A stretch of 64,000 nt of DNA from contig NC_044037.1 in NCBI RefSeq assembly GCF_901765095.1, positions 104,423,279 to 104,487,278 on the forward strand, written 5' to 3'. Below are positions 1,445 to 56,590 of this stretch, one piece after another (positions within the stretch are counted from its first letter, which is position 1; each line of letters begins with the position of its first letter). The notes under the pieces are model-generated. The model did no database searches, had not been told where the DNA came from, and saw only the letters and a list, made by a program, of their open reading frames with translations. The stretch is from Microcaecilia unicolor (lineage: Eukaryota). A program made the translations under genes and the position numbers.

Positions 1445-2632
1445 AGAACAAAATATCAGAGCACATTCTAAAGCATGAACTAATGAGACAAAGTCAGCAT
1501 GGATTTAGTGAAGGGAAGTCTTGCCTTACCAATCTACTTTCTTTGAAGGGGTAAACAAACATGTCGACAAAGGTGAGCCGGTGGATATTGTGTATCTGGA
1601 TTTTCAGAAAGCATTTGACAAAGTCCCTCATGAAAGGCTCCAGAGTAAATTAGAGAGTCATGGGATCGGAGGTAGTGTATTGTTATGGATTAAAAACTGG
1701 TTGAAAGATAGGAAACAGAGAGTAGGGTTAAATGGTCACTATTCACAATGGAGAAGGGTAGTTAGTGGGGTCCCTCAGGGATTTGTGCTGGGACCGTTGC
1801 TATTTAACATTTTCATAAACTAGCGAGGTTACCAGATTTGCTGACGACACAAAGTTGTTTAAGGTCGTCAAATCGCGGGAAGATTGTGAAAAGTTGCAGG
1901 AAGATATTGCGAGACAAGGAGTCTGGGCGTCTAAATGGCAGATGACGTTCAATGTGAGCAAGTGCAAAGTGATGCATGTGGGAAAGAGGAACCCAAACTA
2001 TAGCTACGTCATGCAAGGTTCAGCGTTAGGAGTCACGGAACGAGAAAGGGACCTGAGAGTCATCTTCTGCTCAGTGTGCTGCTGCGACTAAGAAAGCAAA
2101 TAGAAGGTTAGGTATTATTAGGAAAGGGATAGAAAACAAAAATGAAGATATTATGCCACTGTACCGGTCCATGGTGCGACTGCACCTAGAATATTGTGTT
2201 CAATTCTGGTTGCTGCACCTCAAAAAATACATAGTGGAATTAGAAAAGGTGCAGAGAAGGGCAACGAAAATGATAAAGGGGATGGGACAACTTTCCTATG
2301 AGGAAAGGCTAAAGCAGCTGGGGCTCTTCAGCTTGGAGAAAGGCGGCTGAGGGGTGATATGATAGAGGTATATAAAATAATGAGTGGAGTGGAGTGGAAA
2401 AGATAGATATGGAGCGTCTGTTTACGCTTTCCAAAAATACTAGGACAAGGGGGCATGCGAAGAAGCTGGAATGCAGTAAGTTTAAAACAAATAAGAGAAA
2501 ATATTTCTTTACTTAGCGCGTAATTCGACTCTGGAATTCGTTGCCGGACAATGTGGTTGGGGCGGTTAGCTTGGCAGAGTTGAAGAAGGGTTTGGACGGC
2601 TTCCTGAAGGAAAAGGCCATAGAATGTTATTA
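1445..2632 (+). mobile_element. CR1-like LINE, 5'-truncated degenerate copy (ORF2 RT region with stops and frameshifts)
   Basis: Plus ORFs 1521..1823, 1855..2091 and 2153..2350 encode [60 protein letters not shown] and PLYRSMVRLHLEYCVQFW..ERLKQLGLFSLEKG. They are homologous piece by piece to the intact copy at 2633-4063. Confidence 0.85.
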
Positions 2633-4330
2633 AATGGACGTAGGGAAAAATCCACTATTCCTGGGCCAAGCAGTACAAAATGCTTTGCTCTGTGGATCTG
2701 TGTAATACCGGAAGATTGGAGGGTAGCCAATGTTACTCCGATTTTTAAGAAAGGTTCCAGAGGAGATCCGGGAAATTATAGACCGGTGAGTCTGACGTCG
2801 GTGCCGGGCAAGATGGTGGAGGCTATTATTAAGAATAAAATTGCAGAGCATATACAAAAACATGGACTGATGAGACAAAGTCAGCACGGATTTAGTGAAG
2901 GGAAGTCTTGCCTCACCAATCTAATGCATTTTTTTGAGGGGGTAAGCAAACATGTGGACAATGGGGAGCCGGTTGATATTGTATATCTGGATTTTCAGAA
3001 GGCGTTTGACAAAGTGCCGCACGAAAGACTCCTGAAGAAATTGCAGAGTCATGGAATCGGAGGTAGGGTATTATTATGGATTAAGAACTGGTTGAAAGAT
3101 AGGAAGCAGAGAGTAGGATTGCGTGGCCAGTATTCTCAGTGGAGGAGGGTAGTTAGTGGGGTCCCGCAGGGGTCTGTGCTGGGTCCGTTGCTTTTTAATG
3201 TATTTATAAATGACCTAGAGATGGGAATAACTAGTGAGGTAATTAAATTCGCCGATGACACAAAATTATTCAGGGTCGTCAAGTCGCAGGAGGAATGTGA
3301 ACGATTACAGGAGGACCTTGCGAGACTGGGAGAATGGGCGTGCAAGTGGCAGATGAAGTTCAATGTTGACAAGTGCAAAGTGATGCATGTGGGTAAGAGG
3401 AACCCGAATTATAGCTACGTCTTGCAAGGTTCCGCGTTAGGAGTTACGGATCAAGAAAGGGATCTGGGTGTCGTCGTCGATGATACGCTGAAACCTTCTG
3501 CTCAGTGTGCTGCTGCGGCTAGGAAAGCGAATAGAATGTTGGGTGTTATTAGGAAGGGTATGGAGTCCAGGTGTGCGGATGTTATAATGCCGTTGTATCG
3601 CTCCATGGTGCGACCGCACCTGGAGTATTGTGTTCAGTACTGGTCTCCGTATCTCAAAAAAGATATAGTAGAATTGGAAAAGGTACAGCGAAGGGCGACG
3701 AAAATGATAGTGGGGATGGGACGACTTTCCTATGAAGAGAGGCTGAGAAGGCTAGGGCTTTTCAGCTTGGAGAAGAGACGGCTGAGGGGAGATATGATAG
3801 AAGTGTATAAAATAATGAGTGGAATGGATCGGGTGGATGTGAAGCGACTGTTCACGCTATCCAAAAATACTAGGACTAGAGGGCATGAGTTGAAGCTACA
3901 GTGTGGTAAATTTAAAACGAATCGGAGAAAATTTTTCTTCACCCAACGTGTAATTAGACTCTGGAATTCATTGCCGGAGAACGTGGTACGGGCGGTTAGC
4001 TTGACGGAGTTTAAAAAGGGGTTAGATAGATTCCTAAAGGACAAGTCCATAGACCGCTATTAAATGGACTGGAAAAATTCCTCATTTTTAGGTATAACTT
4101 GTCTGGAATGTTTTTACGTTTGGGGAGCGTGCCAGGTGCCCTTGACCTGGATTGGCCACTGTCGGTGACAGGATGCTGGGCTAGATGGACCTTTGGTCTT
4201 TCCCAGTATGGCACTACTTATGTAGTTATGTATGTACTTATATTGTGACCTTAGCCACTGTCGGAGAAAGGGTGCTGGGCTAGATGGACCTTTGGTCTGT
4301 CCCAGTGTGGCGATGCTTATGTCTCTGCCT
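2633..4330 (+). mobile_element. CR1-like LINE, 5'-truncated copy with intact 479-aa ORF2 C-terminal portion (RT domain) plus its 3' UTR tail
   Basis: ORF 2624..4063 carries RT motifs: [82 protein letters not shown] and FTQRVIRLWNSLPENVV. The 3' tail (GCCAGGTGCCCTTGACCTGGATTGGCCACTGTCGGTGACAGGATGCTGGGCTAGATGGACCTTTGGTC) occurs twice in tandem at 4130-4210 and 4240-4320. Confidence 0.9.
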
Positions 4331-7639: not shown

Positions 7640-8625
7640 ATTGGTGATAGGATGGGTGGGGTTCACAGAAGGCTAGCCTATCCATGCTTCTGGGCACCAC
7701 AACTGGTTCCACCGAGCCCTCAGTGAATAAAGAGAAGTGAGAAATATGCACGGTCCATCCAGTCTGCCAAACAAGATAAACTCATATGTGCTAGTTTTTG
7801 TGTATACCTTACCTTGATTTGTACTTGTCTTTTTCATGGCACAGACCATATAAGTCCGCCCAGTACTATCCCCGCCTCCCACCACCGGCTCTGGCACAGA
7901 CAATATATGTCTGCCCAGCACTATCCCTGCCTCCCACCCACCAGCCCCGGCACAGACCGTATAAGTCTGCCCAGCACTAGCCCCGCCTCCCAACCACCGG
8001 CTCTGCCACCCATTCTAGGCTAAGCTCCTGAGCATCCCTTCCTTCTGAACAAGATTCCTTTATGTTTATCCCACGCATGTTTGAATTCCATTACCGTTTT
8101 CATCTCCACCACCTCCCGCGGGAGGGCATTCCAAGCATCCACCACCCTCTCCGTCAGTCGGTATATCTTCATAAGACTGGTTTGAATTTGTTCCTGAGAG
8201 AGGTGAATGCCCAAGTCTGTATTCCATTGCTGAGTCACCCTCTCATAGTCATACTGCTTTGTAGAGTCTCTGAGGTGCGAGTGAAAAAACTTCAAAGGGA
8301 TATGTGATTGCGCATCAAGCCCAAGCATGGAGTTATAGCATTCCCAAGTTTCTGTTGCCAGAGAGCGAACATAATGTCTTAGCTGTATATAGGCAAAGAT
8401 ATCTTGTTTGTCCAATTTATACTTCCTACAAAGGTCAGAAAAGGCTTTTATTTTACCCTGCTCTGATACCACGATACAAATATTGTATTCCCTGAGATGC
8501 CCATCTCTGAAAGACCTTCGAAGTGCTGCCCACTGGGAAGGAGGGGGTTCCCTCTTATGGGTAATAAGGGAGAAACTGAATTGCTCAGAGAAAATATTTG
8601 ACATAACCATCTCCACATCTGGCAC
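7640..8625 (-). mobile_element. LINE family 2 (CR1/L2-like) 3' end: ORF2 C-terminus plus characteristic 3' tail
   Basis: Minus ORF 8020..8625 ends ..ERVVDAWNALPREVVEMKTVMEFKHAWDKHKGILFRRKGCSGA. The tail at 7640-8020 is the reverse complement of the tail at 55540-55900 (GGGCAGACTTATACGGTCTGTGCC repeats, CTGGATGGACCGTGCA). Confidence 0.85.
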
Positions 8626-12229: not shown

Positions 12230-12780
12230 GAAGCTTCCCATCCTCCCCCTTTCCCCTCTGAGGGGCTGTCCAAGGCAGGGCCGCCGAGGGGGGGGGGGGG
12301 GGGGCTGGCAGGGGGGACAAAATTCCCCGGGCCCGGGCCTCCAAAGGGGGCCCGGCGCCGGGGGTCTCTCTCCTTCTCCTGCTCCCAGGCCACCGGCGCT
12401 GCAGTCCCTGGTCTCACCTGCTTCCCTCGGCTCTGTCGACAGCCCCCCTCCGTCTGCCACAGGGCCACCTGCATTCAAATCGGCAGCGCCTCACCTCCTT
12501 GTGTAAGCAGCAGATCACCTCCCTTCGGGCCTTCCCTCAATGTCCCGCTCTCGTCTGATTTAACTTCCTGTTTCCGCGAACGCGGGACACAGGGAGGGCC
12601 CAAAGGGAGGCGATCTGCTGCTTTCACACGGAGGTGAGGCGCTGCTGATTTGAATGCAGGGGGCTCGGTGGTGGACTGAGGGGGGCTGTCGACGGGGCTG
12701 GGGGTGGGCGGCCTTGCCCTGGATCAGTCTCTCGGTGGCCCTGGTCCAATGATCCTATCCAGCTGGGGGCACTATTGTCC
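12230..12780 (+). repeat. Family-B long palindromic element (poly-G/C terminus, GGGGACAAAATTCCCCGGGCCCGGGCCTCCAAAGGGGGCCCGGCGCC arms, central loop ..TGTCCCGCTCTCGTCTGATTTAACTTCCTGTTTCCGCGAACGCGGGACA..) just downstream of the MVP 3' UTR
   Basis: 12480-12560 and 12585-12665 are reverse complements (cagcgcctcacctcc..gatcacctcccttcgggccttccctc / gagggagggcccaaagggaggcgatc..ggaggtgaggcgctg). Outer arms 12290-12420 mirror 12660-12780. Confidence 0.8.
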
Positions 12781-16569: not shown

Positions 16570-16974
16570 CTGAAAATAAGAGATAGAGACGGAGAAAATG
16601 GGGAGAGAAAAAATAATAATACAAAACACCAGGCAGATCAATATTCAGCACAGTTCAAATAGACAGGAGGCATTTACTAACCTGTGTTAGGCAAAGAACT
16701 TGCATTAATGTGCATTAGTTAGTAAATTGGCCACAAGGAGAATAATGGAGCTTGCGCTATATATATCATATCTAATAAAACGCACCTCCAACGTTCTGAA
16801 GCTGACTGCGTGGCTGTTTGGCTGAGGCATTCGTGCGCTGCTCTGCTGTAAGGCTACTGACTGAACGTCACATAGTTCCGGGAACGTCAGCCACAGCACT
16901 GACCAACCGCATGAGGCCCCGCCCCTGCCACAACGCCATGCCCCCCCAGGTTGCCGCCACCAGGCATGCAGGCT

Positions 16975-17260
16975 CGGCCCTTCTCTCTCTGTTAGCTCTG
17001 GTCCCGCCCTCATTTCCTCTTTCCGCAATGAGGGCGGGACCAGAGCTAACACAGAGAGAAGGACCGAGGCTGCACGTCTTTAAACACTGCTTTCCTGGGA
17101 AGATGATTTTTAAAACTTGGAGCGAGTGGGCTCGCCTCCAGCCTTTCCCTTCCCTCACTCAGTGTCCCGTCTTCTTGTGATGATGTATTTCCTGTTTCCA
17201 CAAGGACGGGACACTGTGTGAGACAAGGGAAAGGCTGGAGGCGAGCCTGCTGTGTTGTGT
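16975..17260 (+). repeat. Two adjacent family-A hairpin palindromes (16975-17075 and 17100-17260) in the MVP intron between exons 11 and 10
   Basis: gccttctctctctgttagctctggtcccgccctcat..atgagggcgggaccagagctaacacagagagaagg, and gagtgggctcgcctccagcctttcccttccctcactcagtgtcccgtc..gacgggacactgtgtgagacaagggaaaggctggaggcgagcc. Confidence 0.85.
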
Positions 17261-17670: not shown

Positions 17671-18329
17671 CTGAGGAGAGAAGGAGAAAATGGTAAGACA
17701 GAAAGGCTGGGAAAAGTGAAAGGAAGGAAAAGAGAAAAGTGCAGAGCATGTAACTCAATAGGAGAGCACTTGGGTTTGATTCCCCCTGGGAAGGGGCTCT
17801 TTCACTATACATTGGTAACACTTACTTGCCAGACGTATGGCGCACATATCCCAGGAAAGGGAGAATGTTATAGACTAGAGGGAAAACCCCTTGGTAGTTT
17901 CTTATTAAATTTTATGATACTGAAGCGCAATAAAGGTTGAGTCCAAGCAGGGCTGCCAAGAGACTGAGCCAGGCCTAGGGCAGGGCCACCGCATCCCCCC
18001 CCCCCCCCCCCCCAGGATCATCGAAGCTGCTGTATCCCCAGGATCGCCCCACCTCCGCCCCCCCCGGATCGCTGTCACTGCTGCCCCCCCCCCAAACTCC
18101 AAATACCTTGGCTGGCAGAGATCCCGAGGCCCTGCAAGCAGAAGAAATCTTCCTCCAGCTCTGCAGTGCTCTTCACTCCGCTGCCTCAATGTCTGCCTTG
18201 CCCCTGTGGCTGCTTTTCCCCTCAGGCCGTGCATGATCAGTTTTGAATCCGACCACGCCTGACGTGAGAGAAAAAGCAGCCGCTTGGTAGGCAATGCAGC
18301 AGAGAGTGAAGAGCAGCGCTTGAGGAAGA

Positions 18330-19689: not shown

Positions 19690-19875
19690 ATTTTTGTTAC
19701 ATTTGTACCCTGCACTTTCTCACTCATGGCAGGCTCAATGCGGCTTACATGGGGCAATGGAGGGTTAAGTGACTTGCCCAGAGTCACAAGGAGCTGCCTG
19801 TGCCTGAAGTGGGAATTGAACTCAGTTCCTCAGGACCAAAGTCCACCACTCTAACCATTAGGCCACTCCTCCACT
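19690..19875 (-). mobile_element. tRNA-derived SINE
   Basis: This is the reverse complement of the SINE at 21870-22085. It has a tRNA-like head with A box (GGCCTAATGGTTAGAG) and B box (GTTCAATTCCC), then the ..CTTGGGCAAGTCACTTAACCCTCCATTGCC.. body. Confidence 0.8.
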
Positions 19876-19999
19876 CATGAGATCTCAGCAGTACTGTTTG
19901 CTTTTATCTTTCCTTATGTTGATGGACTTCCTTTCAGACAACAGTCCTGACTTTTATATGATACTAGTAAATAAGGCCCGTTTCTGACACAAATGAAAC

Positions 20000-20520
20000 G
20001 GCCGCTAGCAAGGTTTTCCTCGGCTCCCCTGCAGCCACCCATGTCCAGCGACCCTCCTCTCTCCCTGCAGCCACCCATGTCTAGCTACCCTCCTCTCCCC
20101 CTGTGCCCACTGCAGCCACTCATGTCCAGCGAACCTCCTCTCCCCTGCCCCCCCTCCTGCCACCCATGTTCAGTGACCCTCCTCTCTCACCTGCCCCCCC
20201 TCCAGCCACCCATGTCCAGTGGCCCCTCCTCCAGCCACCCATGTTCAGAAACCCTCCTCTCTCCCCTCCCTCCCTGCAGCCACCCCTGTCCAGCGACCCT
20301 CCTCTGTACCCTGCCCCCCCTCCAGCCACCCATGTCCAGCGACCCTCCTCTGGACATGGATCAGCTATGAGGCATGTTTTTTTCCCCCCGGGTTCTGAAG
20401 TTGACATCATAATGGCTACCCTGATGTCAGCCTGATCTACGGAGCCTAGCAGACCAACTCGGAATGAGCCACGGTCCCAGGCAAGTCAGAACATTGGAGG
20501 TGAGAATTATTATATAGGAT
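20000..20520 (+). repeat. Satellite-like tandem array (about 45-bp unit CCACCCATGTCCAGCGACCCTCCTCTCTCCCTGCAG, about 8 copies) plus conserved 3' flank; in MVP intron 8
   Basis: Directly visible periodicity. The 3' flank GATCTACGGA..CCACGGTCCCAGGCA..GGAGGTGAGAATTATTATATAGGAT recurs at 53060-53170. Confidence 0.85.
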
Positions 20521-21869: not shown

Positions 21870-22085
21870 AATGGAGTGGAGGAGTGGCCTAGTGGTTAGA
21901 GCACCGGTCTTGCAATCCAGAGGTGGTTGGTTCAAATCCCACTGCTGCTCCTTGTGATCTTGGGCAAGTCACTTAACCCTCCATTGCCTCAGGTACAAAC
22001 TTAGATTGTGAGCCCTCCTGGGACAGAGAAATATCCAGTGTACCTGAATGTAACTCACCTTGAGCTACTACTGAAAAAGGTGTGA
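21870..22085 (+). mobile_element. tRNA-derived SINE
   Basis: Head GGAGTGGCCTAGTGGTTAGAGCACCGGTCTTGCAATCCAGAGGTGGTTGGTTCAAATCCCACTGC shows pol III A and B boxes. Body is TTGGGCAAGTCACTTAACCCTCCATTGCCTCAG..., ending in an A-rich tail. Confidence 0.8.
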
Positions 22086-23089
22086 GCAAAATCCAAATAA
22101 ATAAAATTTAGGCACTCACATTACAGAATGAGGTGGTTCAATTCATGATCTGTATAGCACTGGTACAAGTCTGTCTAACCATCTCAGCACTGAATAGTGC
22201 TGGGGCAGCCTTAGGGGTGTAGCAACTATTATACATATAGCAGTAATCAGCTGCCATTGGTGCTGACAACATGTGTCATTAACTCAGCGCTGCCACCTAT
22301 CCATATTTTCTAAGTGCCATGGATGGCATTTAAAAAGCTGCAAGCACTGCCATTGCTTAAAAGCGATCATTTAATGTTTGTATAGTACCTAGGAGTTGAT
22401 AAACACAAATGTTAATTGAAAGGCAGTTTACTATTATTTAAGTTTTCACAGCTCAAAACTATTCACAGAGGAGAGAGCTGCCCTGTACAAGGAGAGATAA
22501 ACACTTGTGGACCACTTCACTAGGTGAAAGACCAATGATTTAAGAACCCTAGAGCTAGAGAATGACACAGGGACATGGATCTGTGATAAACCGCAGTAAT
22601 CCACAGTAAATCCGCGCTAAAAGAAAAAAAATCTAGCCGTTTACCGCTGATGTGGGAGCAAAACTTTTACCGCCCCACGGGAGCAGTAAAAAAAACTTTG
22701 CTCTCGCGGTTTAAAAAAACAAAGTTGCAGTTACCATTTCCGGTCCAGCATCTCCGTGACTGCCTTCCTCCCTCTCTCCCGCAGTAGCTCTACCTTATGC
22801 AGCCAGACAGTGGTGCGCTGGAGCTGGCTCGTATGAGCAGTTTGTTAATTTTTTAAAAATTTTGGGAGCCGGTTGTTAAACTAACAACCGGCTTCCAAAA
22901 TTTGGGCTCAGGTCCCTTCTCAGCATCTTTGTCCTCCTCCTCCCCTGTGGCTTGTTCCAGTGGCGTAACTACAGGGTGCCTCTGTCTCAGCACCCCCCCC
23001 CCCCCCCAACAATAGTGCCCAGACAGGTGGTTTTTTGCTTTCTCAGGCTCCCTATGCTCCTTGTCCTCACAGTCAGACAGCTGAGCTCT

Positions 23090-23345: not shown

Positions 23346-24546
23346 GAAAGGGAGGAAGAGCTCAAATACCTGACTGCGGGGACAGGGAGCCTCAAAAGAA
23401 AGCAACCAAACCTGTGAGCTACTTTTTCCACGTTCTTGTTCTTTATTGTTGGTACCATTTTTATTTGATCCCACTTATATTTTCAAACATGCCAGCTTGT
23501 GCAGCATACGCATATACACACAGAGGAAGTATAATAACAGAATAACTTTTCATAGGTAGAGTAGTAATTTGCTATAAATTGTAATCAGTGTGTGATTTGG
23601 AGGGACTGGTTATAGAGACCCACGTGTGTGTGTGGGGGTGCTGCAGTGGACCCACGGAAAGGGAGGGGGCTGCTGGACCCGAAGGGGTTGCTGAAGAGAA
23701 GGGAGAAAGACACTGGACCACTGAGGTGAGGGAGGGCTGGCTGGACGGAAGGGAGAGAGGCACGCTGGACCCTTGGGGAGCTAGGGCTGGAGGAAAGAGA
23801 GAGGTGCTGGACCTGTAGGGGAGGAAGGGACACAGAGGGAAGATGCTAGACATCAGGGAACATAGGAATGCATAAGGGAGATGCTGGACATAGGTGGAGG
23901 GTATAGGGATAGGCTAAGGGCTCTCTCTGGCCAGGGGGCAGATGTCCTAGTTGCACCTCCCTAACACCATCTCTGGCATGTGTGATCTTTATATTTTGCA
24001 TCGTATAGGAGGAAATGTATATCTTTCTATTTCTGTGGTGTGGCTTCTTGTAGTTTTACATTAATATATGTTTATCATTTTTGGTCAGCTATTGGCATTT
24101 GTGTTCTGTGGGTGGGGGGGGGGGGGGGGGTGGCTGAGGTATTCTGTTAGCAAGAATTTTCTATGTAGCATTCTGTAGTAATTTGGCTTGTTCAGTTTTC
24201 CTGATAGTGGAGGGGATATTTGTGAGGGGAGACGGGGATTTTGTTGACCCTTGTTCTGTATTGTTTGTGATTTATAAAACAGTTATAAAAAGAAACAATA
24301 TTCTGTACATGTTAATAAAATGATTTAAATATAAAAATCAGAATGAGGCTTGGGGATGGGGCGGGGACAAGGAAACATTTTGTCCCCACGTCATTCTCTA
24401 CCTAGAGCCCTCCTAACAGCAAAGACCTGAGTAGCAGCTATACAGATAACCATATTACATCATCATATTAACACCAGATCCATCCCTGCTTTATCATCTT
24501 CTAGGAGCAGGGACTTTGCTGAATGCACTCTCCTCTTTCCCCTCAC

Positions 24547-35865: not shown

Positions 35866-36039
35866 CTGATAAACAGAATTCTGCTGAATCGTGAGCTTGA
35901 CAGTGGCATAGTGAACAGATCAATATAACAATATCCAGTAAGTCGTGGTGTATCATAGTACATGTATATACCTGGTTATGCTAGTATTCTAAATATGCAC
36001 CTATTTTCCTTTATACAATGGCTACCTATATAGTAACAT

Positions 36040-36335
36040 AGTAAATGACAGCAGATAAAGACCTGTACAGTCCATCCAGTCTGCCCAACAAGATAAACTC
36101 ATTTTACATGGTATGCAATACTTTATATGTATACCCAAGTTTGATTTGTCCTTGCCATTCTCAGGGCACAGACTGTAGAAGTCTGCCCAGCACTCTTCTT
36201 GTTCTGAAGCTAACGTCGAAGCCCCTTAAAATTTACACTCAAGCCCATCCATATCCATTCAGTCACAACCAGGACGTAGACCGTAGAAGTCTGCCCAGCA
36301 CCGGTTTTGCTTTCCAATTACTGGCGCACTATTGT
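36040..36335 (-). mobile_element. LINE family 2 3' tail fragment (reverse)
   Basis: gtaacatagtaaatgacagcagataaagacctgtacagtccatccagtctgcccaacaagataaactca..ggcacagactgtagaagtctgcccagcac. This is the reverse complement of the 55700-55900 tail, including the GGGCAGACTT..GTCTGTGCC motif twice. Confidence 0.75.
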
Positions 36336-37282: not shown

Positions 37283-37479
37283 CTGAGCAAGAAGAGTCAA
37301 AAACAGACCATTATGAGGAACAAGACATATGAAAGCAAATTTTAGATACAATGTAGATATCGGAACTGAGACATCCAGGTCAGGATGTCTCAAATTCCAC
37401 TAGCGTTTTACAAAATGGCTCTGCCGACGTAATCTTTTCTAAATTCATGTAGGAACAATGATGGATACTTATAGCCAGG

Positions 37480-37870
37480 GCCGCTGAAAGGGGGGAGGGG
37501 GGGCAGGAGGGACCCGGCGCCGCAATCCCCGATCTCACCCGCCCTTGGCTCCGTCGACTGTCCGCCACTGGGCCGGGCCCCCCGCATTGAAATCATTACA
37601 GCGCCTCACCTGTCACCTCGCTCTGTGACTGAAAGCGCAGCAGCGGCAGATCGGATTCGCCTCCCTTCGGGCCTTCCCTCCCTGTGTCCCGCCCTCGTGT
37701 GATGTAACTTCCGTGAGGGCAGGGCACAGGAAGGGAAGGCCCGAAGGGAGGCGAATCCGATCTGCGGCTGCACTTTCAGTCAGGGAGCGAGGTGACAGGT
37801 GAGGTGCTGTAATGATTTCAATGCAGGGGGCCCAGCCCAGTCTCTCGGTGGCCCTGCTTATAGCCCGCTA
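37480..37870 (+). repeat. Family-B long palindromic element in MVP intron 1 (same loop family as 12230-12780)
   Basis: Arms ..cattgaaatcattacagcgcctcacctgtcacctcgctc..gcagcggcagatcggattcgcctcccttcgggccttccctccctgtgtcccgccctcgtgtgatgtaacttccgtgagggcagggcacagg.. pair with their reverse complement at 37735-37830. Confidence 0.85.
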
Positions 37871-40849
37871 CTCTCCCTAAAACTAGGCTCAGCGTGGGTT
37901 AACAAAAGAAAAACTATGAGACTGATTGTTTCTGGAAACAAAAAGATGAAGATGCTCCAATATCTACAGGAAGTGCATTCCAATATTTAGTCATGCAAAA
38001 TAATGCAGACTTTTCCTGAAAACCTTTAAGTTTGATTCCTCTAAACGAAGGAACTCTCAGCATAAGATGGTAGAGAACATTATTCTTGTAGCTATCATAT
38101 AAATAATGTGACTAATGAAGTCAGATGAGAAGGGCAAAAGCCCTCTAAAATCATAACAACAAAGCAACATATTTTTAAAAGTATTCTTGCTCTTATTGGA
38201 AGCCGATGCAGTTCAACCAACTAAGGAGATACATGGTCATACTTAGCTTGGCAAAAAATTAGCCTAGCAACTGTATTCTGGATCTAATGTAACCTTTGCA
38301 GTTGTTTTTCTGCGATTCCTACATACAGAGAATTACAGTAGTCTAGTTGCGACAACATCAACAGCTGTACCAACACCTTAAAATGGCTCGGGAAAAAATA
38401 AGAACAGACCAGCCATAGCTGTTCCAGCTTAAAGACCTTTTGTGACAGATTTTTAATCTGAGCATCCATAGTCATAGTAAAGTCTAGGATAACCCCTAGC
38501 ACTCTTCTTTTACGATCTACAATCAACTGAGATCCATTGAAACATGAGACATAATTTGGAATATTAGTCTCACTTACACCATACCATAAAATCTTTGTCT
38601 TATCTGCATTTAGTTGAGCTTAACAAAGACCAAACACTTAATTTCCTCCATACAGTAACTGATTTTAGTAAACAAGCTATCTTGAGATAATCCAGTTGAA
38701 ACCAATACGAAAATATGATATGCTGGCTACATGTGGTGGCGGCAGCATCCATTTGCAAACATTGGTGTCTACAGTATTGTCACGGTCACCCCAGTGCTCC
38801 CTTACCTCCGTGTCAGGGCCCAGTGTGACAAGCTCTGCTGCCCTCCGACCTGCTCTTTCCTCCGACCTTCCTACAGCTGTGCATGCTCGTTTGGTGGAGG
38901 CTGGATGGGGGTTGGCGCTGCTCAGGCCCGTCCCTCACTGACATCATCACCCTGGGCCTTCTTCTGCAGTTGCTACTCTGCTTTGCAACAGGTCATCCTG
39001 GTTCCAGCTTCCAGCACAGCTTCAGATTCCAGCCTTGGTTCCAGCTCAGCTTCTGCTTCCTGCCCTGGTTCCAGCCTCCAGCTCAGCTTCAGCTTCCAGC
39101 CTTGGTTCCAACTCCAGCACAGCTTCAGCTTCCAGCAAAGGTCCTGGTTCCAGCTCCAGCACAAATTCAGATTCAGTTCTGGGTACAGCTTCCTTCAACG
39201 CCTCTACTGGAGCAATCCCTTCTGCAGGGACTCGTCCGCCGTTTGCTACAGTCTGTCTGTCCCCTGGGCAGGCAGGCACTACTGTTCCACTACAGTCCTA
39301 GGGCTCACTCATCCTAAATCGTGACATATGTATGTGCCGTGTTGCCTCTGTTGATATATCTATGTTTTCCAAGCTCACAGAGTCCAATATCATTTGCCAC
39401 CACTTTTGAGGGGGATAAAAATACTAGGGGATTTAGGGGACAATATCCCCTAATCCCTACTGTAGAATACTGCACAAAATGAGCACCTTTAAAGAACTTA
39501 GATGTCCCCAGGAGTAGCTGTGAATCCTGATGTTAATCTTGAAAAACCGCACAAGCCAAAAAAAAAAAAGGGGGGGGGGGGGGGTCAAAGCCACCATATC
39601 TGTTTTATAACAGAAGTGTGTGTGTATGTGTTCATATATATAGTTGCATATGGTTTACCTTCATACAGGACCCCTGACGAAGGCTACTTTGCCGAAACAC
39701 AGCTCGTGTCTAGTTTTGCCTGTATGGACTATTGATGAATAAACTATTTGGAACATTAAACCTGTATGTCCTTGAAATTTGTTGTCTTTTGACCTGTGGG
39801 TTTGGAGGCTTCCATCCCTTTTTCAGCTTGTGCAGTGCAGCTTCTTGTGGAAGTGTTTTGCTCTTCTTTTTGTTTTTTTCTCTGATCTTGGAGAACAAAT
39901 AGGTATTCCATTTCTAAAATGGGGAATATATGAGTATATATTAACCCCAACCTAGTCCCACTCAAAACACATCCAGACCATGCCTCCTCACCACATACAT
40001 GTACTCTCAATCTGGACATGTATATCCCAGTTTTCTAAAACTGGGATTTAGACATGTATATGATAAACATGTCTAAGTGCCAGTTTATAACCACCTTTAA
40101 TTTATATGTAACTTTTTATGTGCAGTGTGCTTGATTTATTACCCCAAGAAACTGATTCCTGTTATGAACTGTATCTTTTGGATCTTTTACCGCACTGAAG
40201 ACCTCAATAGATTTTTTTTTTGTTGTTGTTATTTTCCTCCCACCTTCTTCCAAATTATGTTTTGAAGAAAGCCACAGCAGAATCAGAAGACGGCGTCCTT
40301 TTAGTGTTACTGCTTCTCCTCCCCTCATTCTAATGTGACAAGACTGTTGGGTCTCAGACAGTGGTGTGCTGGTAAATGTTTAACAACAAGCTCTCTCCAC
40401 GGTCCACCTCTGCGCCCCCCCCCCCCCCCCCACATCTACCTCTGCACCCCCCCAAATTGTAGAGCTGGCTATAGCCGGGGAAAGAGCCGGGGGGGGGGGG
40501 GGGGGGGCAATGCATTACTCTCTCCAGGAAAAAAAAATTAAATGATCCCAGGTTCCAATCTAATTCATGTTTAATGTGGGATAAAATGCCATAAATAAAT
40601 AAATATAAACTTTTAATGTTCAGCACCTGATTTTCAAAGTGGACATATTCCAAGCACTATAATGAAAATAAAATGATTTTTTTCTACCTTTGTTGTCTGA
40701 TAACTGTTTTTCTGATCATGCTGGCCCAGTATCTGATTCTGCTGCTATCTGTCCTCTTAACTTCGTTTCCAGGGCTTCCTTTCCATTTATTTCTTTACTT
40801 TCCGCCTTTCTTCATCATTTCTTGCCCTACATCCGTAAGTAAAAACTGT

Positions 40850-41400
40850 GTCCTCCGCAGACTTGACTGTCCAGCATTTCTTCTCTCTCTCCCTTCCCTC
40901 TCCTCCATCCATGTCCAGCATTTTTCCTGTCTCCCCTCCATTCCTCTCTCTTCCCTCCCCTCTATCCATGTGCAGCTCCTTCCTGTCTTCCCTCCATCCA
41001 CCCATGTCCAGCAAACCTCCTCTCTCTCCTGCCCTCCTCTCCATCCACCCATGTCCAGCAACCCTCCTCTCTCCCCTGCCCTCCAACTATCCATCCATAC
41101 CCAGCAATTCTCTTCTCTCCCCTGACCCCCTTTCCATCCATACCCAGCAATTCTCTTCTCTCCCCTGACCCCCTTTCCATCCATACCCAGCAATTCTCTT
41201 CTCTCCCCTGACCCCCTCCCATCCATCCATACCCAGCGATTCTCCTCTTTCCCCTGCCCTCTCCTCCCGCTCCCATCCATGTCCAGCAATTCTCCTTCGC
41301 CCCCGCCCTCTCCTCCCACTCCCATCCATGTCCAGCGATTCTCCTTCTCCCCCATCCTCCCCTCCCATTCATATTTCACCTGCCCGCCCTCTTCTCCCCC
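40850..41400 (+). repeat. Satellite-like tandem array, same family as 20000-20370 (units ..CCATCCATGTCCAGCAA(T/C)CCTCCTCTCTCCCCTGCCC..; later units CCATCCATACCCAGCAATTCTCTTCTCTCCCCTGACCCCCTTT); in MVP intron 1
   Basis: About 11 tandem units are visible. This explains the large overlapping ORFs on both strands (40795..41433, 40962..41372). Confidence 0.85.
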
Positions 41401-41499
41401 CAACATCCCCCTTTTTCTTCCTACCAGTGCCACCCTGTGTGATTTAAATCTTTTTTATTACTTCCGTCGAAGTGGCCGCGTCATTGAAAGCCCTGCCTG

Positions 41500-41640
41500 T
41501 CTCTAGCCTTCCCTTCGTGAGTTTGTTCCCTCAGAGTCCCGCCTTCTGACCTCATTTCCTCTTTTCGCAAGGGCGGGACTCTGAGGGAACGAACTCACGA
41601 AGGGAAGGCTAGAGGCAGGCAGGGCTTTCAATGACGCGGC
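41500..41640 (+). repeat. Family-A hairpin palindrome in MVP intron 1
   Basis: gcctgtctctagccttcccttcgtgagtttgttccctcagagtcccgcc..ggcgggactctgagggaacgaactcacgaagggaaggctagaggcaggc. Confidence 0.85.
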
Positions 41641-42034
41641 CGCTTTGATGGAGGTAATAAAAAAAGATTTAAAACCACACAGGGCGGTGCGGGGCGGGAA
41701 CAGGCAAACGAGGGCTGTGGGAGGTGAGGTAAGCGGGGTAAGCATGGTTTGTGGCGCCCTCCTGCCACGCTTACCTCGTTTACTGGAGCCGGCTCGCAAG
41801 ATCTTAAAAACAAAACAAAAAACTTAACAACCAGCTCTTGCAAGCCGGTGCGAGCCGGCTCCAGCACACCACTGGTCTCAAGCTCCCATAGCACAGACTT
41901 TCTTAAGAGCTGACGACACAAATGCCCGTCCCAGGAAGGAGGTCCTCAAGGACACTTTTAAGCAGGCTCCAGAGCCCCCCCCCCCAACACACCCACAGCA
42001 CATACCCCACAGTGACAACTGAGATTGCACTTAC

Positions 42035-44056: not shown

Positions 44057-44090
<34 letters not shown>
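44057..44090. repeat. (TA)17 microsatellite
   Basis: atatatatatatatatatatatatatatatatat, directly visible. Confidence 0.95.
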
Positions 44091-44092
<2 letters not shown>

Positions 44093-44099
44093 TCAAGTC

Positions 44100-44570
44100 C
44101 CTCTCCTCCGAGTTCCAAGCCCCCCTCCCTCTCCCTCCATCCCGCCTCCATTCCAGACCCCCCTCGCTCCCTCCGAGTTCCAGGCCCAGTGGCCCGCCCT
44201 CCCTCCGACTGAGTTCCAGCCCAACCTCTTCTCCCACTCCAACAGTGCTTCGCCTGCCCCTCGCCTTCCTGCATGCCGCCCAGAATTTAAAAGTCATCTT
44301 ACCGGGGTCTCGGCGGCAGCAGTGAAATGCGAGCAGGCTCGGTGAGTCGACGCTTCAGCAGGCTGCCTTCCCTTCTCTTCGCTCTCAGCTCTGCCTCTGG
44401 TCCCGCCCTCATTTCTTGTTTCTGCAAGGGTAGGACCAGAGGCAGAGCGAAGAGAAGGGAAGGCAGCCCGCTGAAGCGCCGACTTGCCAAGCCAGCTCGC
44501 CTTTCACTGCTGCCGCCGGGACCCCAGTAAGATGACTTTTAAATTCTAGGCGGCATGCAGGAAGGCGAGG
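44100..44570 (+). repeat. Composite element: tandem CTCCGAGTTCCAGGCCC units (44100-44270) joined to an approximately 300-bp near-perfect palindrome (44270-44570)
   Basis: Arms 44270-44415 and 44425-44570 are reverse complements (..gaatttaaaagtcatcttaccgggg.. / ..ccccagtaagatgacttttaaattc..). The loop core is ctctggtcccgccctcatttcttgtttctgcaagggtaggaccagag. A (TA)17 microsatellite lies just upstream at 44057-44090. Confidence 0.8.
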
Positions 44571-44639
44571 GGCAGGCGGACTCTGTTGAGGGAGATGGGA
44601 GAAGACGTCAGGCAGCGGGCTGGCTCCTGGCTGGGAGCT

Positions 44640-44900
44640 TCCGGCTTCCGGTTCCGGTGGGGAAAATTGCATGATGCGGTGCCCTTGAAGGCAGGCGCCC
44701 CCCTGCGGTGCTTACCGGGTTAGGCCGGCCCTGCTGCCATGGACCCGGATGATTACATTAACACGATATTGCGTTAATGTAATCATCCGGTTCCTGACTC
44801 CTGGCACACAGGAGTACTGGAGCAGGAGAGGACAGAGCGAGGGAGCAGCGCAGCAGTGATTCAGAGAGAGAAAGGTGCAGGGACAGGTGGCGCGTTCGGG
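44640..44900 (-). promoter_or_regulatory. MVP: Candidate MVP promoter and non-coding first exon (TATA-less, tandem ETS/GABP-like CCGGAAGC motifs, CpG-rich)
   Basis: On the minus strand this region reads ..accggaaccggaagccggaagctccc.., i.e. tandem GGAA/ETS cores. A possible exon-1 donor ccggtaagcacc lies at about 44708-44722. The region sits about 2.5 kb upstream of the ATG exon, whose acceptor implies an upstream non-coding exon. It also contains a perfect 20+20 nt palindrome at 44745-44790. Confidence 0.3.
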
Positions 44901-51599: not shown

Positions 51600-51932
51600 A
51601 AAGGAAAGAAAGGACACAACAAACCCACACTACGAGAGAACAGACAACTAACAAAAATCAACACAACTTCGAACCTCGCCAACCCCTACCAAACAATTCA
51701 AGTGGGATACATAAACGCCAGATCAGTAGTCAACAAAACAACAATAATAACAGACTGGATCACGGCAGACAACCTCGACCTACTATTCATCAGTGAAACC
51801 TGGATCCAAGATCATAAGGACCCCATAATTTTAGATCTAAGCCCCCCAGGCTACAAAATCACTCACTGGACAAGAAAAGAAAAAAGAAGAGGAGGCATAG
51901 CACTAATCAGGGCCGGTCTTAGGGCGAGGTGA
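51600..51932 (+). mobile_element. LINE 5' region encoding apurinic-endonuclease-like (EN) domain N-terminus
   Basis: ORF 51408..51932 contains ..IQVGYINARSVVNKTTIITDWITADNLDLLFISETWIQDHKDPIILDLSPPGYKITHWTRKEKRRGGIALI, a typical L2/CR1/RTE EN signature (NARS..NK, ETW, GGG(I/V)A). It is truncated where it abuts the hairpin at 51930. Confidence 0.7.
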
Positions 51933-52090
51933 CCGCATAGGGCCTCGCGCTCAAGGCGCTTCGGGAGCCTTCCTTTCCCTTCCCTCGTTCAGCTCTGGTC
52001 CCGTCCTCGTTTTGAGGGCGGGACCAGAGCTGAGTGAGGGAAAGGAAGGCTCCTGAAGCGCCGCCCAGCAGCTCGCATGCTTTTCACGGC
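51930..52090 (+). repeat. Hairpin palindrome (family A core GCTCTGGTCCCGTCCTCGTTTTGAGGGCGGGACCAGAGC) adjoining the 52130-52460 tandem array
   Basis: Arms ..gcgcttcgggagccttcctttcccttccctcgttcagctctggtcccg.. and ..cgggaccagagctgagtgagggaaaggaaggctcctgaagcgc.. are reverse complements. Confidence 0.8.
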
Positions 52091-52129
52091 TGCTGCTACC
52101 TGCCGGCCGCTCCGATGTCGACAACGAGG

Positions 52130-52460
52130 TAACTTTTAAAATTCAGAGGGAAGGGGGCCTTGGAGCTGGTGGATGGGAGGGAGCTGGGCCTTGGAGCTGG
52201 GTGGGAGCTGGGTGGGGGGCCTTGGAGCTGGTGGGTGGGAGGGAGAGAGAGACAGGCCTTGGAGCGGGGAGGGAGGGGGGGCCTTGGAGCTGGTGGGTGG
52301 GAGGGAGAGAGAGACCGGCCAGCCGGCCTTGGAACTGGGAGGGAGGGAGGGGGGCCTTGGAGCTGGGGAGCCTAGCCCTGGAGCTGGGGAGCCCAGGGGA
52401 TGGCCCTGGAACTCGGAGGGAGGGGTAGCCGGCCCTGGAGCTAGGGTGGGGGTGGGGCTA
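52130..52460 (+). repeat. Tandem repeat (unit about GGCCTTGGAGCTGGTGGGTGGGAGGGAG...), same family in inverse orientation at 44100-44270
   Basis: Visible repetition of gggccttggagctgg at least 8 times. 44100-44270 carries CTCCGAGTTCCAGGCCC units, the reverse complement of ggccctggaactcggag found at 52400. Confidence 0.8.
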
Positions 52461-53369
52461 GGATGGGGCCCCATCAGATTGGTCTGCATAGGGCCCCGCA
52501 CTTGCTAAGACCAGCCCTGGTGACGTGCAGGGGAGAGGAGGAGCGGCTGCAAAGACGACAGCCAATGCCAGATGGCTGTCTACGGAGCCGCATTTTTCAG
52601 GTTGGGTTTTTTTTTTTTTTAATTCTTTCTTTTTGTACCGGCTGCTGCTGCTCAACAGGAGAAGCAGCAGCGGCCGGACAGGGTTACTATTGGGGGTTGC
52701 GGGTGTCGAGGGGATTGATGTCCCCGGGGGGGTTAGGGTCTTGGGTGATGCGCCGAGGGGAGGGGAGGGTCGCTGGACATGGGTGGCTGGAGGGGGAGAA
52801 AGGGGGGAGGGGCTTGGGTGATGCGCCGAGGGGGGGTAGGGACTTGGGTGATGCGCCGAGGGGGGGCACTGACAGCTGATTCCTAGGCAGAAAGAGGAGT
52901 AGGGCCCTACTCCTCCCCCTGCCTGGCTCGCGGTTTGGCAGGGGAGGGGCTTGGATGATGTGCCGAGGGGGATGGCACTGACATCTGATTCCTAGACAGG
53001 GGAGTAGGGACTCCTCCCCCTGCCTGGGTCGCTGTTTGCTATTGGATTCTCTCAGCAGTGTCATTGTGATGTCACTGATCTACGGACGGAAGCTCACCAC
53101 CTCCAAGGGATCCACGGTCCCAGGCAGCTTCAGAATGTTGGAGGTGAGAATTATTATATAGGATAATTATTAATTAATTTTCAAAATTATTGGGGGTGCT
53201 AAACCCAATGTAAATTACCTCTCCCTGGACACAATTAACCAATTTGTTCAATATTGGGGGTGCTCAATTACTCACTGCACCCACAGAGTTGGCTCCATTC
53301 ATATGCAACCTTCAGCTATCCTGCCTCTTAACAGTAAGCTTGATCAGTTACAATCACAAAAATAAAATT

Positions 53370-54299: not shown

Positions 54300-55900
54300 A
54301 TGGAAGCGATGCTGAAGGAAAGGGTAGTGAATTTCCTGGAAGCCAATAAGTTGCAAGATCCGAGACAACATAGTTTTACCAGAGGGAAATCGTGCCAAAC
54401 GAATCTCATTAAATTCTTTGATTGGGTAACTGGAGAATTGAATCATCGACATGCTATAGACGTAATCTACTTAGATTTTAGCAAAGCTTTTGACACGGTT
54501 CCCCACAGGAGGCTTTTAAATAAACTCGATGGGCTGAAGATAGGTCCCGAAGTGGTGAACTGGATTAGGAACTGGTTGACGGACAGACGACAGAGGGAGG
54601 TGATAAATGGAGTTCACTCGGAGGGAAAGGTGAGTAGTGCAGTGCCTCAGGGATCGGTGCTGGGGCCGATTCTGTTCAATATATTTGTGAGTGACATTGC
54701 CGAAGGGTTAGAAGGTAAAGTTTGCCTATTTGCGGATGATACTAAGATTTGTAACAGAGTGGACACCCGGGAGGGAGTGGAAAACATGAAAAAGATCTGC
54801 GGAAGCTAGAAGAATGGTCTAAGGTTTGACAATTAAAATTCAATGCAAAGAAATGCAAAGTGATGCACTTAGGGAGTAGAAACCCACGAGAGACTTATGT
54901 GTTAGGCGATGAGAGTCTGATACGTACTGAGGGGGAGAGGGATCTTGGGGTGATAGTATCCGAGGATCTGAAGGCGACAAAACAGTGTGACAAGGCGGTG
55001 GCCGTAGCGAGAAGGTTGCTAGGCTGGATAGAGAGAGGTGTGACCAGCAGAAGAAAGGAAGTGTTGATGCCCCTGTACAAGTCGTTGGTGAGGCCCCACC
55101 TGGAGTATTGTGTTCAGTTTTGGAGGCCGTACCTTGCTAAGGATGTAAATAAAATTGAAGCGGTGCAAAGAAAAGCTACGAGATTGGTATGGGATTTGCG
55201 TTCCAAGACATATGAGGAGAGACTTGCTGACCTGAACATGTATACCCTGGAGGAAAGGAGGAACAGGGGTGATATGATACAGACATTCAAATATTTGAAA
55301 GGTATTAATCCGCAAACAAATCTTTTCTGGAGATGGGAAGGCGATAGAACGAGAGGACATGAAATGAGATTGAAGAGGGGCAGACTCAAAAAAGATGTCA
55401 GGAAGTATTTTTTCACAGAGAGAGTGGTGGATGCTTGGAATGCCCTCCCGTGGGAGGTGGTGGAGATGAAAACAGTAACGGAATTCAAATATGTGTGGGA
55501 TATACATAAAAGAATCCTGTGCAGAAGGAATGGATCCTCAGGAGCTTATCCAAAATTGGGTGGCGGAGCCAGTGGGGGGAAGAGGGGTTGGTGGTTGGGA
55601 GGCGAGGATAGTGGTGGGCAGACTTATACGGTCTGTGCCAGAGCCGGTGGTGGGAGGCAGGGCTGGTGGTTGGGAGGAGGGGATAGTGCTGGGCAGACTT
55701 ATACGGTCTGTGCCCTGAAAAAGACAGGTACAAATCAAGGTAAGGTATACACATATGAGTTTATCTTGTTGGGCAGACTGGATGGACCGTGCAGGTCTTT
55801 TTCTGCCGTCATCTACTATGTTACTATGTTACTTGCTGTGGCAAAAATCCAGATCTTTAGTGTTTTGCTGCCTATTTTTGCTTGTTGACACAAGTCATTG
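54300..55900 (+). mobile_element. LINE family 2 (CR1/L2-like), 5'-truncated: ORF2 RT domain (one frameshift near 54810-54860) plus 3' tail
   Basis: ORFs 54300..54809 (HSFTRGKSCQTNL..IDVIYLDFSKAFDTVPH..PQGSVLGPILFNIFVSD..FADDTKI) and 54860..55888 (LMPLYKSLVRPHLEYCVQFW..ERVVDAWNALPWEVVEMKTVTEFKYVWDIHK). The tail 55540-55900 has (GGGCAGACTTATACGGTCTGTGCC)x2 ..CTGGATGGACCGTGCAGGTC. Confidence 0.85.
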
Positions 55901-56189
55901 CCATTTTTTAAAAACTTTTAACTGAGGCTGAGCAGCCTCAAAGGAAATGGGCAAAGTCTCAAAGAGCAGAACATATGACTCAGAGCTCCAGGTGATTGAT
56001 GTAGAAATGCAGTTTGGATTTCGACCAGGTTCTTTGAGTGAGGTAGGAGTATAAGTGGACTCCCCACTCTACGTTTTATTTATTAACTAGCCGTTGAGCC
56101 CGTAAAAACGGGCTAGTAAAGGAAGGGGGGGTTTGAAAGCCCCCCCCCCGGATAGGTCGCCGCCTCCGCCACCCCTCCACCCGGGTCGG

Positions 56190-56590
56190 GTACCTGGCTT
56201 CACTATTCAAACCCCCGGAACGCAGCACACAGCTCATCTGAGCTGCCGTCGGCCTTCCTTCTTCTCTGCGTGTGTTCCGCCCTCGTGTGACGTAACGTCA
56301 GCGAGGGCGGGACACAGGCAGGTAAGGAAGGCCAACGGCAGCTCAGATGAGCTGTGTGCTGCGTTTCCGGGGGTTTGAATAGTGAAGCCAGGTACCCGGG
56401 CCGGGTGGAGGGTGGGTGGTGGCGGCGACTCCGGGTGGGTGGAGGGAGCAGTAGCGGCAACCCTGGGGGGGGGGGGAGCGGTGGCGACGGCGGTTCCCTC
56501 ACTCGCAGGTGCGCAGGTTCCCTCTCTGTTTCGCCCCCGTCATCACGTATTGACGCGGGGGCAGGACAGAGAGGGTCTCTACTGCGCATT
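56190..56590 (+). repeat. Two family-A hairpin palindromes (56200-56380; 56500-56585) in a GC-rich block with poly-G/C tracts
   Basis: ggaacgcagcacacagctcatctgagctgccgtcggccttcc..gtgttccgccctcgtgtgacgtaacgtcagcgagggcgggacacag..ggaaggccaacggcagctcagatgagctgtgtgctgcgtttcc. A second smaller hairpin is ccctctctgtttcgcccccgtcatcacgtattgacgcgggggcaggacagagaggg. Confidence 0.85.

Follow-up and report, generated by a model that had tools for sequence, protein, structure and literature searches.

The tandem arrays described here probably represent the internal minisatellite of a family of short (~540–560 bp), non-autonomous Helitrons. The assignment is based on one complete copy (locus A) together with partial relatives, with three left and two right ends present in the window, that is, the entire 64,000 nucleotides of vertebrate genomic DNA (G+C 45.6%) that were analysed. 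Read on the minus strand, locus A begins after a host A with TCCTATATAATAATTC..., the start of a TA-rich left terminal sequence referred to here as F, and continues through a ~70-nt spacer, eight ~45-bp units and 28 nt of other sequence into a CCGTTTC/GAAACGG hairpin, a 7-nt spacer, CTAG and a host T. The positions of this element, and of the features related to it, are given in Table 1.

Table 1. Window coordinates of the arrays, terminal sequences and hairpins discussed in the text
Feature	Position	Strand	Description
Array A	20016..20352	+	8 units of 27–46 bp; C-rich on + strand
Array B	40868..41372	+	10 units of 36–57 bp; without F flank
Locus J, degenerate array of the A-type satellite family	23620..23910	-	GCTGGAC x7 at ~24–42-bp spacing; G-rich on + strand
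Locus A element, 556 bp	19964..20519	-	5'-TC...CTAG-3', host A|T, no target site duplication (TSD); encloses the array
F copy, locus A (left terminal sequence)	20401..20519	-	TCCTATATAATAATTCTCACCTCC...; nhmmer E=6e-33
F copy, locus C	53046..53163	-	nhmmer E=1.6e-31
F copy, locus D	16766..16890	+	more diverged; nhmmer E=1e-28
Right terminal sequence of A	19964..20001	-	GGCCGTTTC-atttgtgtca-GAAACGGGCC hairpin, 7-nt spacer, CTAG, host T
Palindromic junction, flank-proximal end of array A	20330..20359	.	CCATGTCCAG-cgaccctcct-CTGGACATGG; perfect 10-bp inverted repeat
Locus C2, ~539 bp	~52625..53163	-	collinear with A; 3' boundary inferred from hairpin position only
Single A-type unit in C	52753..52810	-	among 30-bp units (GGGGAGGGGCTTGGGTGATGCGCCGAGGGGG) and a 101-bp x2 repeat spanning 52716–53040
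C2 hairpin, position equivalent to the A 3' hairpin	52638..52677	-	15-bp stem; z = -6.1
Palindrome adjoining array B, 258 bp	41430..41687	.	core GTCCCGCC...GGGCGGGAC; self-inverted match 85%
Possible 3' end of the B composite	41729..41786	+	hairpin GAGGTAAGCG...CGCTTACCTC, GTTTA, CTGG|A

Satellite unit and arrays

The satellite arrays are real, and they are built from a complex 36–57-bp unit with the core CCAYCCATGTCCAGCRAYYCTCC. Tandem Repeats Finder, which the first-pass annotation had proposed as a check of unit and copy number, reported arrays at both loci, one at 20026–20352 with periods of 36/44–46/120 and one at 40887–41367 with periods of 43/49/57/89; the unit counts in Table 1 come from cutting the arrays at the conserved core motif. 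Searching with the 23-nt core at up to three mismatches gave 17 matches (seven in A, nine in B and one, on the reverse strand, in C), with none elsewhere in the window and none in 100 shuffles of the sequence, so the core is not a simple low-complexity motif. The satellite is therefore present at the three loci originally named, as two arrays and a unit in C, and the concern that it might be a ubiquitous simple motif does not hold, as all 17 matches are confined to those loci. A profile built from 18 units also gave significant matches in the window at A, B and C only.

Arrays A and B are 68–85% identical to each other. At 337 and 505 bp, with 8–10 units that are 68–97% identical, neither is the long (kb to Mb) homogeneous array of satellite DNA in the strict sense, and both are minisatellites or "satDNA-like" short arrays. 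Within array B, two consecutive 43-bp units are identical and the next unit opens with the same 43 nt (41091–41219 in all), which indicates recent local amplification. Array A is C-rich on the plus strand and thus G-rich on the sense strand of both the element and the MVP gene in which it resides. The degenerate array at locus J was picked up by three unit-profile nhmmer matches, each of them weak (E 0.2–1.7), including a reverse-strand series at 23785–23897. Homology of the A-type unit with the G-rich units at 52146–52470 and 44098–44240, and with the 30-bp units of C2, had been suspected by eye and was unsupported by the unit profile.

Searches beyond the window were negative for each sequence used. 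The translated open reading frame (ORF) of array A had no match in a set of 5.8 billion proteins, the unit core and the F terminus each returned 0 matches in a metagenome scan, and a full-text literature search for the repeat sequences likewise returned 0.

Terminal sequences of locus A

The right end of locus A lies 28 nt beyond the final unit and has the minus-strand sequence GCTAGC-GGCCGTTTC-atttgtgtca-GAAACGGGCC-ttattta-CTAG followed by the host T, with the CTAG at 19964–19967. Its hairpin (CCGTTTC...GAAACGG, 7–9-bp stem) ends 11 nt from the terminus and has a fold z score of -2.8 relative to shuffled sequences. A pattern search for CCGT..ACGG..CTRR found only two loci in 64 kb, the 3' end of A and 56111–56087, and the match at A lies on the strand predicted from F, 555 bp from the F end, with T as the next base. 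In a less specific scan, perfect stems of 7 bp or longer followed by CTRR and T occurred 10 times in 128 kb of strand, so that for any one 100-nt target, with the strand fixed, the probability of a chance match is about 1%.

The 8 nt of host sequence on one side of the element, ATATGATA, bear no relation to those on the other, TGTTGTAC, and the target is thus not duplicated; the ends of the element are not inverted repeats of each other, no terminal inverted repeats were found at A, and no paralogous empty site for its flanks was found in the window. These termini, hairpins and A|T flanks, like the absent target duplication and the repeat relationships, are read directly from the DNA. By this structure, locus A has all the defining features of a canonical Helitron, non-coding and with the array as its putative cargo.

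The left end is supported by two further copies. A profile of F finds copies at A, C and D and nothing else in the window, and in the three-way alignment similarity ends at the same base in all of them (...GGAT in A and C, ...TGAT in D), leaving A|TC. On the other strand, a host A is followed by TCCTATATAATAATTCTCACCTCC... in A and C and by TCATATCTAATAAAACGCACCTCC... in D, so that a TC 5' terminus next to a host A is found in all three exactly where the similarity stops. The first-pass annotation had the flank of A repeated almost exactly at 53060–53170; the match is real (20422–20520 with 53067–53164), but its identity is 81% over 100 bp, and only the terminal 26 of 26 nt are identical, with identity falling to ~70–75% further in. 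Such a gradient between A and C is the usual signature of a transposase-recognised terminus, and the sharp A|TC boundary common to the three copies of F, with the 26 nt of identity between A and C, is what would be expected of such an end.

At locus D, F is followed by two hairpin modules (16967–17074 and 17129–17247) with no A-type satellite, and a 3' end was looked for and not found. In total, three different interiors accompany F, and two or three different neighbours accompany the satellite. The idea that the satellite travels within a mobile composite element is supported at A and C, which have a terminal module of ~100 nt in common and, in A, termini that enclose the array; flank and satellite are nevertheless not a fixed unit, as B has the satellite without the flank, D has the flank without the satellite, and at C the lone A-type unit is surrounded by variant units oriented the other way. 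The earlier reading also depended on flanks being shared on alignment: A and C share F, and A and B share no flank.

The F terminus also holds a string resembling a consensus 5' splice site, TTGGAG|GTGAGA (GTGCGT in D), at 20496–20505, 53140–53149 and 16783–16792. It lies opposite to the MVP strand in A and C and in the MVP sense in D, within the intron between 17472 and 16568.

A collinear relative at locus C

Locus C2 is collinear with A and similar in length, with F, a spacer, G/C-rich arrays and a hairpin with a 15-bp stem in the same arrangement. From 53163 on the minus strand, F is followed by a spacer weakly similar to that of A, by the 101-bp repeat in two copies, by four 30-bp C-rich units interrupted by a single A-type unit, and by 38 nt of other sequence; the hairpin comes next, then TACAAAAAGAAAG and a run of A14 (52603–52622). 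The A-type unit matches the first and the last unit of A at 92–97% identity, and it is the single inverted unit that had been placed within a GC-rich element at ~52745–52775. No CTRR end was recognisable at C2, the 3' end of which is regarded as decayed or undefined. Taken together, this layout suggests that C2 is an older relative of A, of the same length and organisation. LINE fragments around C were considered as a frame for the insertion and set aside, as they are not contiguous and hold no boundary information.

Relative to F, the A-type unit in C is inverted compared with the units of A. At the palindromic junction on the flank-proximal side of array A, a 12-nt remnant of a unit oriented as in C2 is joined to the flipped array, and a weak reverse-strand unit-profile match was obtained there (20361–20350). 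This suggests that the array was inverted in the A lineage by fold-back or template switching, a direction of change that two copies cannot prove.

These comparisons also define what speaks against the Helitron reading. Both canonical ends occur in A only, C2 being without CTRR; at B the satellite is accompanied by neither F nor an A-type 3' end; and the inverted orientation of the C2 unit relative to F, compared with A, differs from bivalve Helentron-derived elements, in which orientation is invariant (PMC7492417). No RepHel ORF was found in the window. Speaking for the Helitron reading, in addition to the collinearity of C2, is the second pattern match at 56087–56111, an end that can be aligned with that of A (CTAGC-CCGTTT..ACGGGC-spacer-CTAG|T) and that closes a block of ~541 bp with an internal palindrome.

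Locus B and palindromic elements

Locus B has only its array in common with A and C. The palindrome adjoining it is related to palindromes at 44224–44608, 16967–17247 and 51955–52062, the core GTCCCGCC...GGGCGGGAC being found at 44224–44608, at 51955–52062 and, within locus D, at 16967–17074 and 17129–17247. The putative right end of the B composite is followed by A, not T, and is homologous to the right end of the 44090–44733 element, which terminates in a hAT-like CAGGGCC-type repeat. Several further candidates at B were rejected: a 7/8 match proposed as a TSD (TCGTTTCC / TCGTTTAC) lacks significance once the free choice of its position is allowed for, F-like ends seen by eye at B, as well as F at 56087–56627, were unsupported by the F profile, and the similarity by eye to an A-type 3' end was equally unsupported. 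Array B may be carried by another Helitron subfamily, one whose interior is palindromic like that of 56087–56627, or by a foldback or hAT-type element.

The chief rival explanation matters mainly for B. It holds that the satellite belongs primarily to palindromic elements (foldback-like or hAT-type MITEs) with G/C-rich subterminal arrays, the ends of A being a chimeric accident or those of a capturing Helitron. Array B abuts its 258-bp palindrome as this would have it; the elements at 44090–44733 and 51908–52519, which align at 62% over 428 bp, carry C- or G-rich 31–37-bp arrays in the same position relative to a palindrome; related palindromic elements with CAGGGCC terminal inverted repeats (TIRs) and 8-bp target duplications lie at 37476–37856 and 12276–12743; and array A itself ends in a palindromic junction. 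The unit profile, however, misses the arrays of 44090–44733 and 51908–52519 (E>10), and the combination of TIRs and 8-bp TSD that marks hAT-type MITEs at 37476–37856 and 12276–12743 is lacking at A, which has neither a CAGGGCC repeat nor an 8-bp duplication. As both the A|TC boundary of the three F copies and the hairpin-CTAG|T end are left unexplained, we consider a primarily palindromic carrier unlikely.

Other origins of the array

The array could instead be a neighbour, not cargo, with a Helitron-like element or fragment represented by F having inserted beside a local minisatellite that was already there. Such a history would fit the ~70-nt unrelated stretch that separates F from the array, as well as the array without F at B and F without the array at D. 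Set against this, the sole site resembling a 3' end lies on the far side of the array, the interval from F to the array holds no hairpin with CTRR in the correct orientation, and at locus C, F again lies within ~260 nt of an A-type unit, an independent co-occurrence that would be unlikely if the two were unrelated neighbours. We therefore regard chance adjacency as improbable.

An SVA-type composite retroposon (SINE, VNTR and tail) mobilised by a LINE is more doubtful still. The A14 run that follows C2 on the minus strand and the abundance in the window of CR1-type LINEs whose 3' UTRs contain tandem repeats are features of the expected kind, but at A neither a poly(A) nor a microsatellite tail is present and the target is not duplicated, there is no tRNA- or 7SL-like head, and C2 has no flanking duplication. 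Rfam and tRNA scans, covering hammerhead or Penelope-type motifs and a SINE head, returned nothing. All of this makes a retroposon very unlikely.

Finally, the view that a low-complexity CT-rich motif gave rise to each array separately, or that segmental duplication spread them, is effectively refuted, despite arrays that are 74–81% pyrimidine and clear local amplification in B: there are 17 occurrences of the non-simple 23-nt core where chance would give 0, units of A match the one in C at up to 97% identity, and a complex unit at a few dispersed loci that share no host flanks rules out both. The earlier statement that the satellite travels rather than arising locally stands in part, as the arrays at A and C are not independent, while copy number has also changed locally, as in the 43-bp units of B.

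Position relative to the MVP gene

A tblastn search of the window with a human MVP sequence gave sixteen ordered MVP exon matches, all on the minus strand, from 42153–42034 (residues 3–42) to 13400–13272. The matches are self-validating, with 62–90% identity and the correct exon order. In a protein search, the concatenated matched exons (416 residues) retrieved, at E = 1e-216, proteins containing Vault and MVP-shoulder domains, the MVP of the window being at best 75% identical to its counterparts (in teleosts) and 68% identical to that of human. Array A and the degenerate array J lie between the eighth (24705–24538) and ninth (19303–19061) MVP coding exons and array B between the first and second, in agreement with the original placement of two arrays in MVP introns; locus C is ~10 kb upstream of the exon with the ATG. 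The human MVP gene has a non-coding first exon, and introns are numbered here by coding exons, a numbering that shifts by one if the MVP gene in the window has such an exon as well. A separate 18/36/67-bp array (CAGCTTCCAGC-type, with TTCCAGC periodicity) in MVP intron 1, at 38997–39174, is unrelated to the satellite of A and B.

The first-pass annotation read the arrays as CT-rich, polypyrimidine-like tracts on the MVP sense strand that could influence splicing. As MVP is on the minus strand and it is the plus strand that is pyrimidine-rich (74% in array A and 81% in array B), both arrays are purine-rich in the MVP pre-mRNA instead; array J alone is pyrimidine-rich on the sense strand. In addition, 661 nt separate the A element from the MVP exon downstream of it and array B lies ~660 nt downstream of the ATG exon, far from the positions of branch points and polypyrimidine tracts, so there is no basis for an effect on splicing. 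Nothing suggests that the arrays affect MVP expression or splicing. A role for G-quadruplexes was also considered and dropped, with 0 canonical motifs on the MVP sense strand in A and three in B.

The arrays are free of stop codons in several frames, giving a 125-aa Pro/Ser-rich ORF at 19993–20370 on the plus strand and a 212-aa Gly/Arg/Glu-rich ORF at 40795–41433 on the minus strand, which gene callers could mistake for proline- or glycine-rich coding sequence.

Additional repeats in the window

The block of ~541 bp at 56087–56627, on the minus strand, is a second Helitron-like element. Its 3' end, CTAGCCCGTTTTTACGGGCTCAACGGCTAG|T, can be aligned with that of locus A; on the 5' side, where the boundary is a guess, A|TCAAACATATAAATGG is a candidate TA-rich end; and its interior is a 303-bp palindrome (56140–56442) with C-rich and G-rich arms.

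The palindromic MITEs at 37476–37856 and 12276–12743 have CAGGGCCRC... / ...GGTGGCCCTG TIRs and are hAT-like, the first with the 8-bp TSD CTTATAGC/CTTATAGC and the second with GTCCAAGG/GTCCAATG (7/8 nt). Further CAGGGCTGCC... termini are located at 17948 and, on the minus strand, at 44969. Compared with genome contigs, the MITE terminus gave three chance matches in GC-rich bacteria; L001, the one checked, is unrelated to the window. The pair at 51908–52519 and 44090–44733, inverted relative to each other in their alignment, has CAGGGCCGG(T/C)CT-type ends, a GTCCCGCCC hairpin core and G-rich arrays with the 31–37-bp unit GGCCTTGGAGCTGGTGGGTGGGAGGG, with no target duplication seen in either; 51908–52519 directly abuts locus C2. 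Long self-complementary repeats are unusually dense between 12424 and 62875, with ~19 of them (50–385 bp, 70–100% complementary) at ~1 per 3–4 kb; they are MITE-like in structure, and many have the core GTCCCGCCCTC-loop-GAGGGCGGGAC.

CR1-type LINE 3' ends occur at 7747–8154, 36030–36194 and 55415–55833. Their 3' UTR contains a 56/75-bp tandem repeat with the motif GGGCAGACTTATA(C/T)GGTCTGTGCCA, and the copy at 55415–55833 has a (TACTATGT)n tail. An apparently intact reverse-transcriptase ORF of 479 aa is found at 2624–4063, with further reverse-transcriptase ORFs at 54300–55888. Inverted copies of a tRNA-derived, MIR-like SINE (...CTTGGGCAAGTCACTTAACCC...TAGATTGTGAGCCC...) lie at 19746–19876 and 21874–22090 and were called by neither ARAGORN nor Rfam.

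Discussion

Helitron carriage, a known and ordinary route for the spread of tandem repeats, is most likely the route at work here. Minisatellite-rich non-autonomous Helitrons include Helitron-N2_XT/Heli2Xen of Xenopus, with a 166-bp unit, and Helitron-N1_DR of zebrafish (PMC12001565), and Helitrons or Helentrons composed largely of minisatellites are also found in bats, Drosophila (DINE-1/HINE) and bivalves (PMC12001565; PMC7492417). Like locus A, the frog and zebrafish elements are dispersed, short non-coding shells, mostly minisatellite, with arrays that vary from copy to copy. Compared by description only, Heli2Xen differs from A in the length of its unit (166 bp versus ~45 bp) and in being a Helitron2-type element, whereas A has canonical Helitron1-type ends (TC/CTAG, A|T).

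Vertebrate Helitron ends have been described as TC with a TA-rich left end "TATATAAA", a right hairpin "CCCGTTA...TAACGGG" and CTAG (PMC12001565). The Heli1Xen1-type Helitrons of frogs, caecilians, lacertid lizards and bichirs share with A the 5'-TC, the TA-rich left end, the CCCGTT..AACGGG hairpin and the 3'-CTAG, a resemblance at the level of motifs; they too have many short non-autonomous copies, but are noted for the capture of gene fragments and not for 45-bp arrays (PMC12001565).

In the layout of their flanks, HINE, DINE-1 and Cg_HINE elements are also similar to A, with flanking modules around a central satDNA-like array and no TSD, and in oyster Helentron-derived elements related flanks can hold unrelated repeats, much like the modular pattern seen here, and elements of this kind seed dispersed short arrays (PMC7492417). 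Central tandem repeats between conserved flanking modules are present at A; a TT target, which Helentrons prefer, is not, the flanks here being A|T with TC/CTAG ends, and none of the inverted repeats reported joins the two ends of A. The orientation of the Cg_HINE repeats relative to their flanks never varied, whereas A and C differ (PMC7492417).

A different context, similar to that of B, is provided by Foldback-type elements, which have an array next to a long palindrome and arrays in both orientations. Tandem-repeat-containing MITEs belong to the same comparison, the MITE-derived satellites of Donax trunculus and Xenopus being cited as such in PMC7492417 (its refs 52 and 55). Arrays adjacent to a long palindrome, in both orientations among related elements, are what B has in common with these systems; A differs from them in having neither terminal inverted repeats nor a TSD. 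The present case joins the known minisatellite Helitrons, with a shorter unit, canonical A|T/TC/CTAG ends and a flip unseen in the oyster elements.

Transposition itself, a partner acting in trans and the order of events are what we infer from this structure. Under the Helitron reading, a RepHel transposase encoded elsewhere in the genome would recognise both ends and move everything between them, and the array would spread as cargo between Helitron ends. The array would also be altered by slippage or unequal exchange, whether after insertion or in master copies, as the near-identical 43-bp units in B suggest. Its orientation could be flipped by fold-back or template switching, to which the palindromic junction in A points, and modules could be reshuffled between elements, as may be seen from F with its three interiors and from the B satellite beside a palindromic module.

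For annotation, both intronic arrays should be masked as transposon cargo, and they are candidates for length polymorphism. They offer a small, clean example of rolling-circle transposons spreading minisatellites in a vertebrate genome. More tentatively, and with more doubt than confidence on our part, the elements may represent an undescribed canonical (A|T, TC/CTAG) Helitron family of tetrapods or fish, with ~45-bp minisatellite cargo, an array flip by way of a palindromic junction and an exchange of modules with palindromic hAT-like MITEs. If so, this family would seed G-rich and C-rich intronic arrays genome-wide and possibly true satellite DNA elsewhere.
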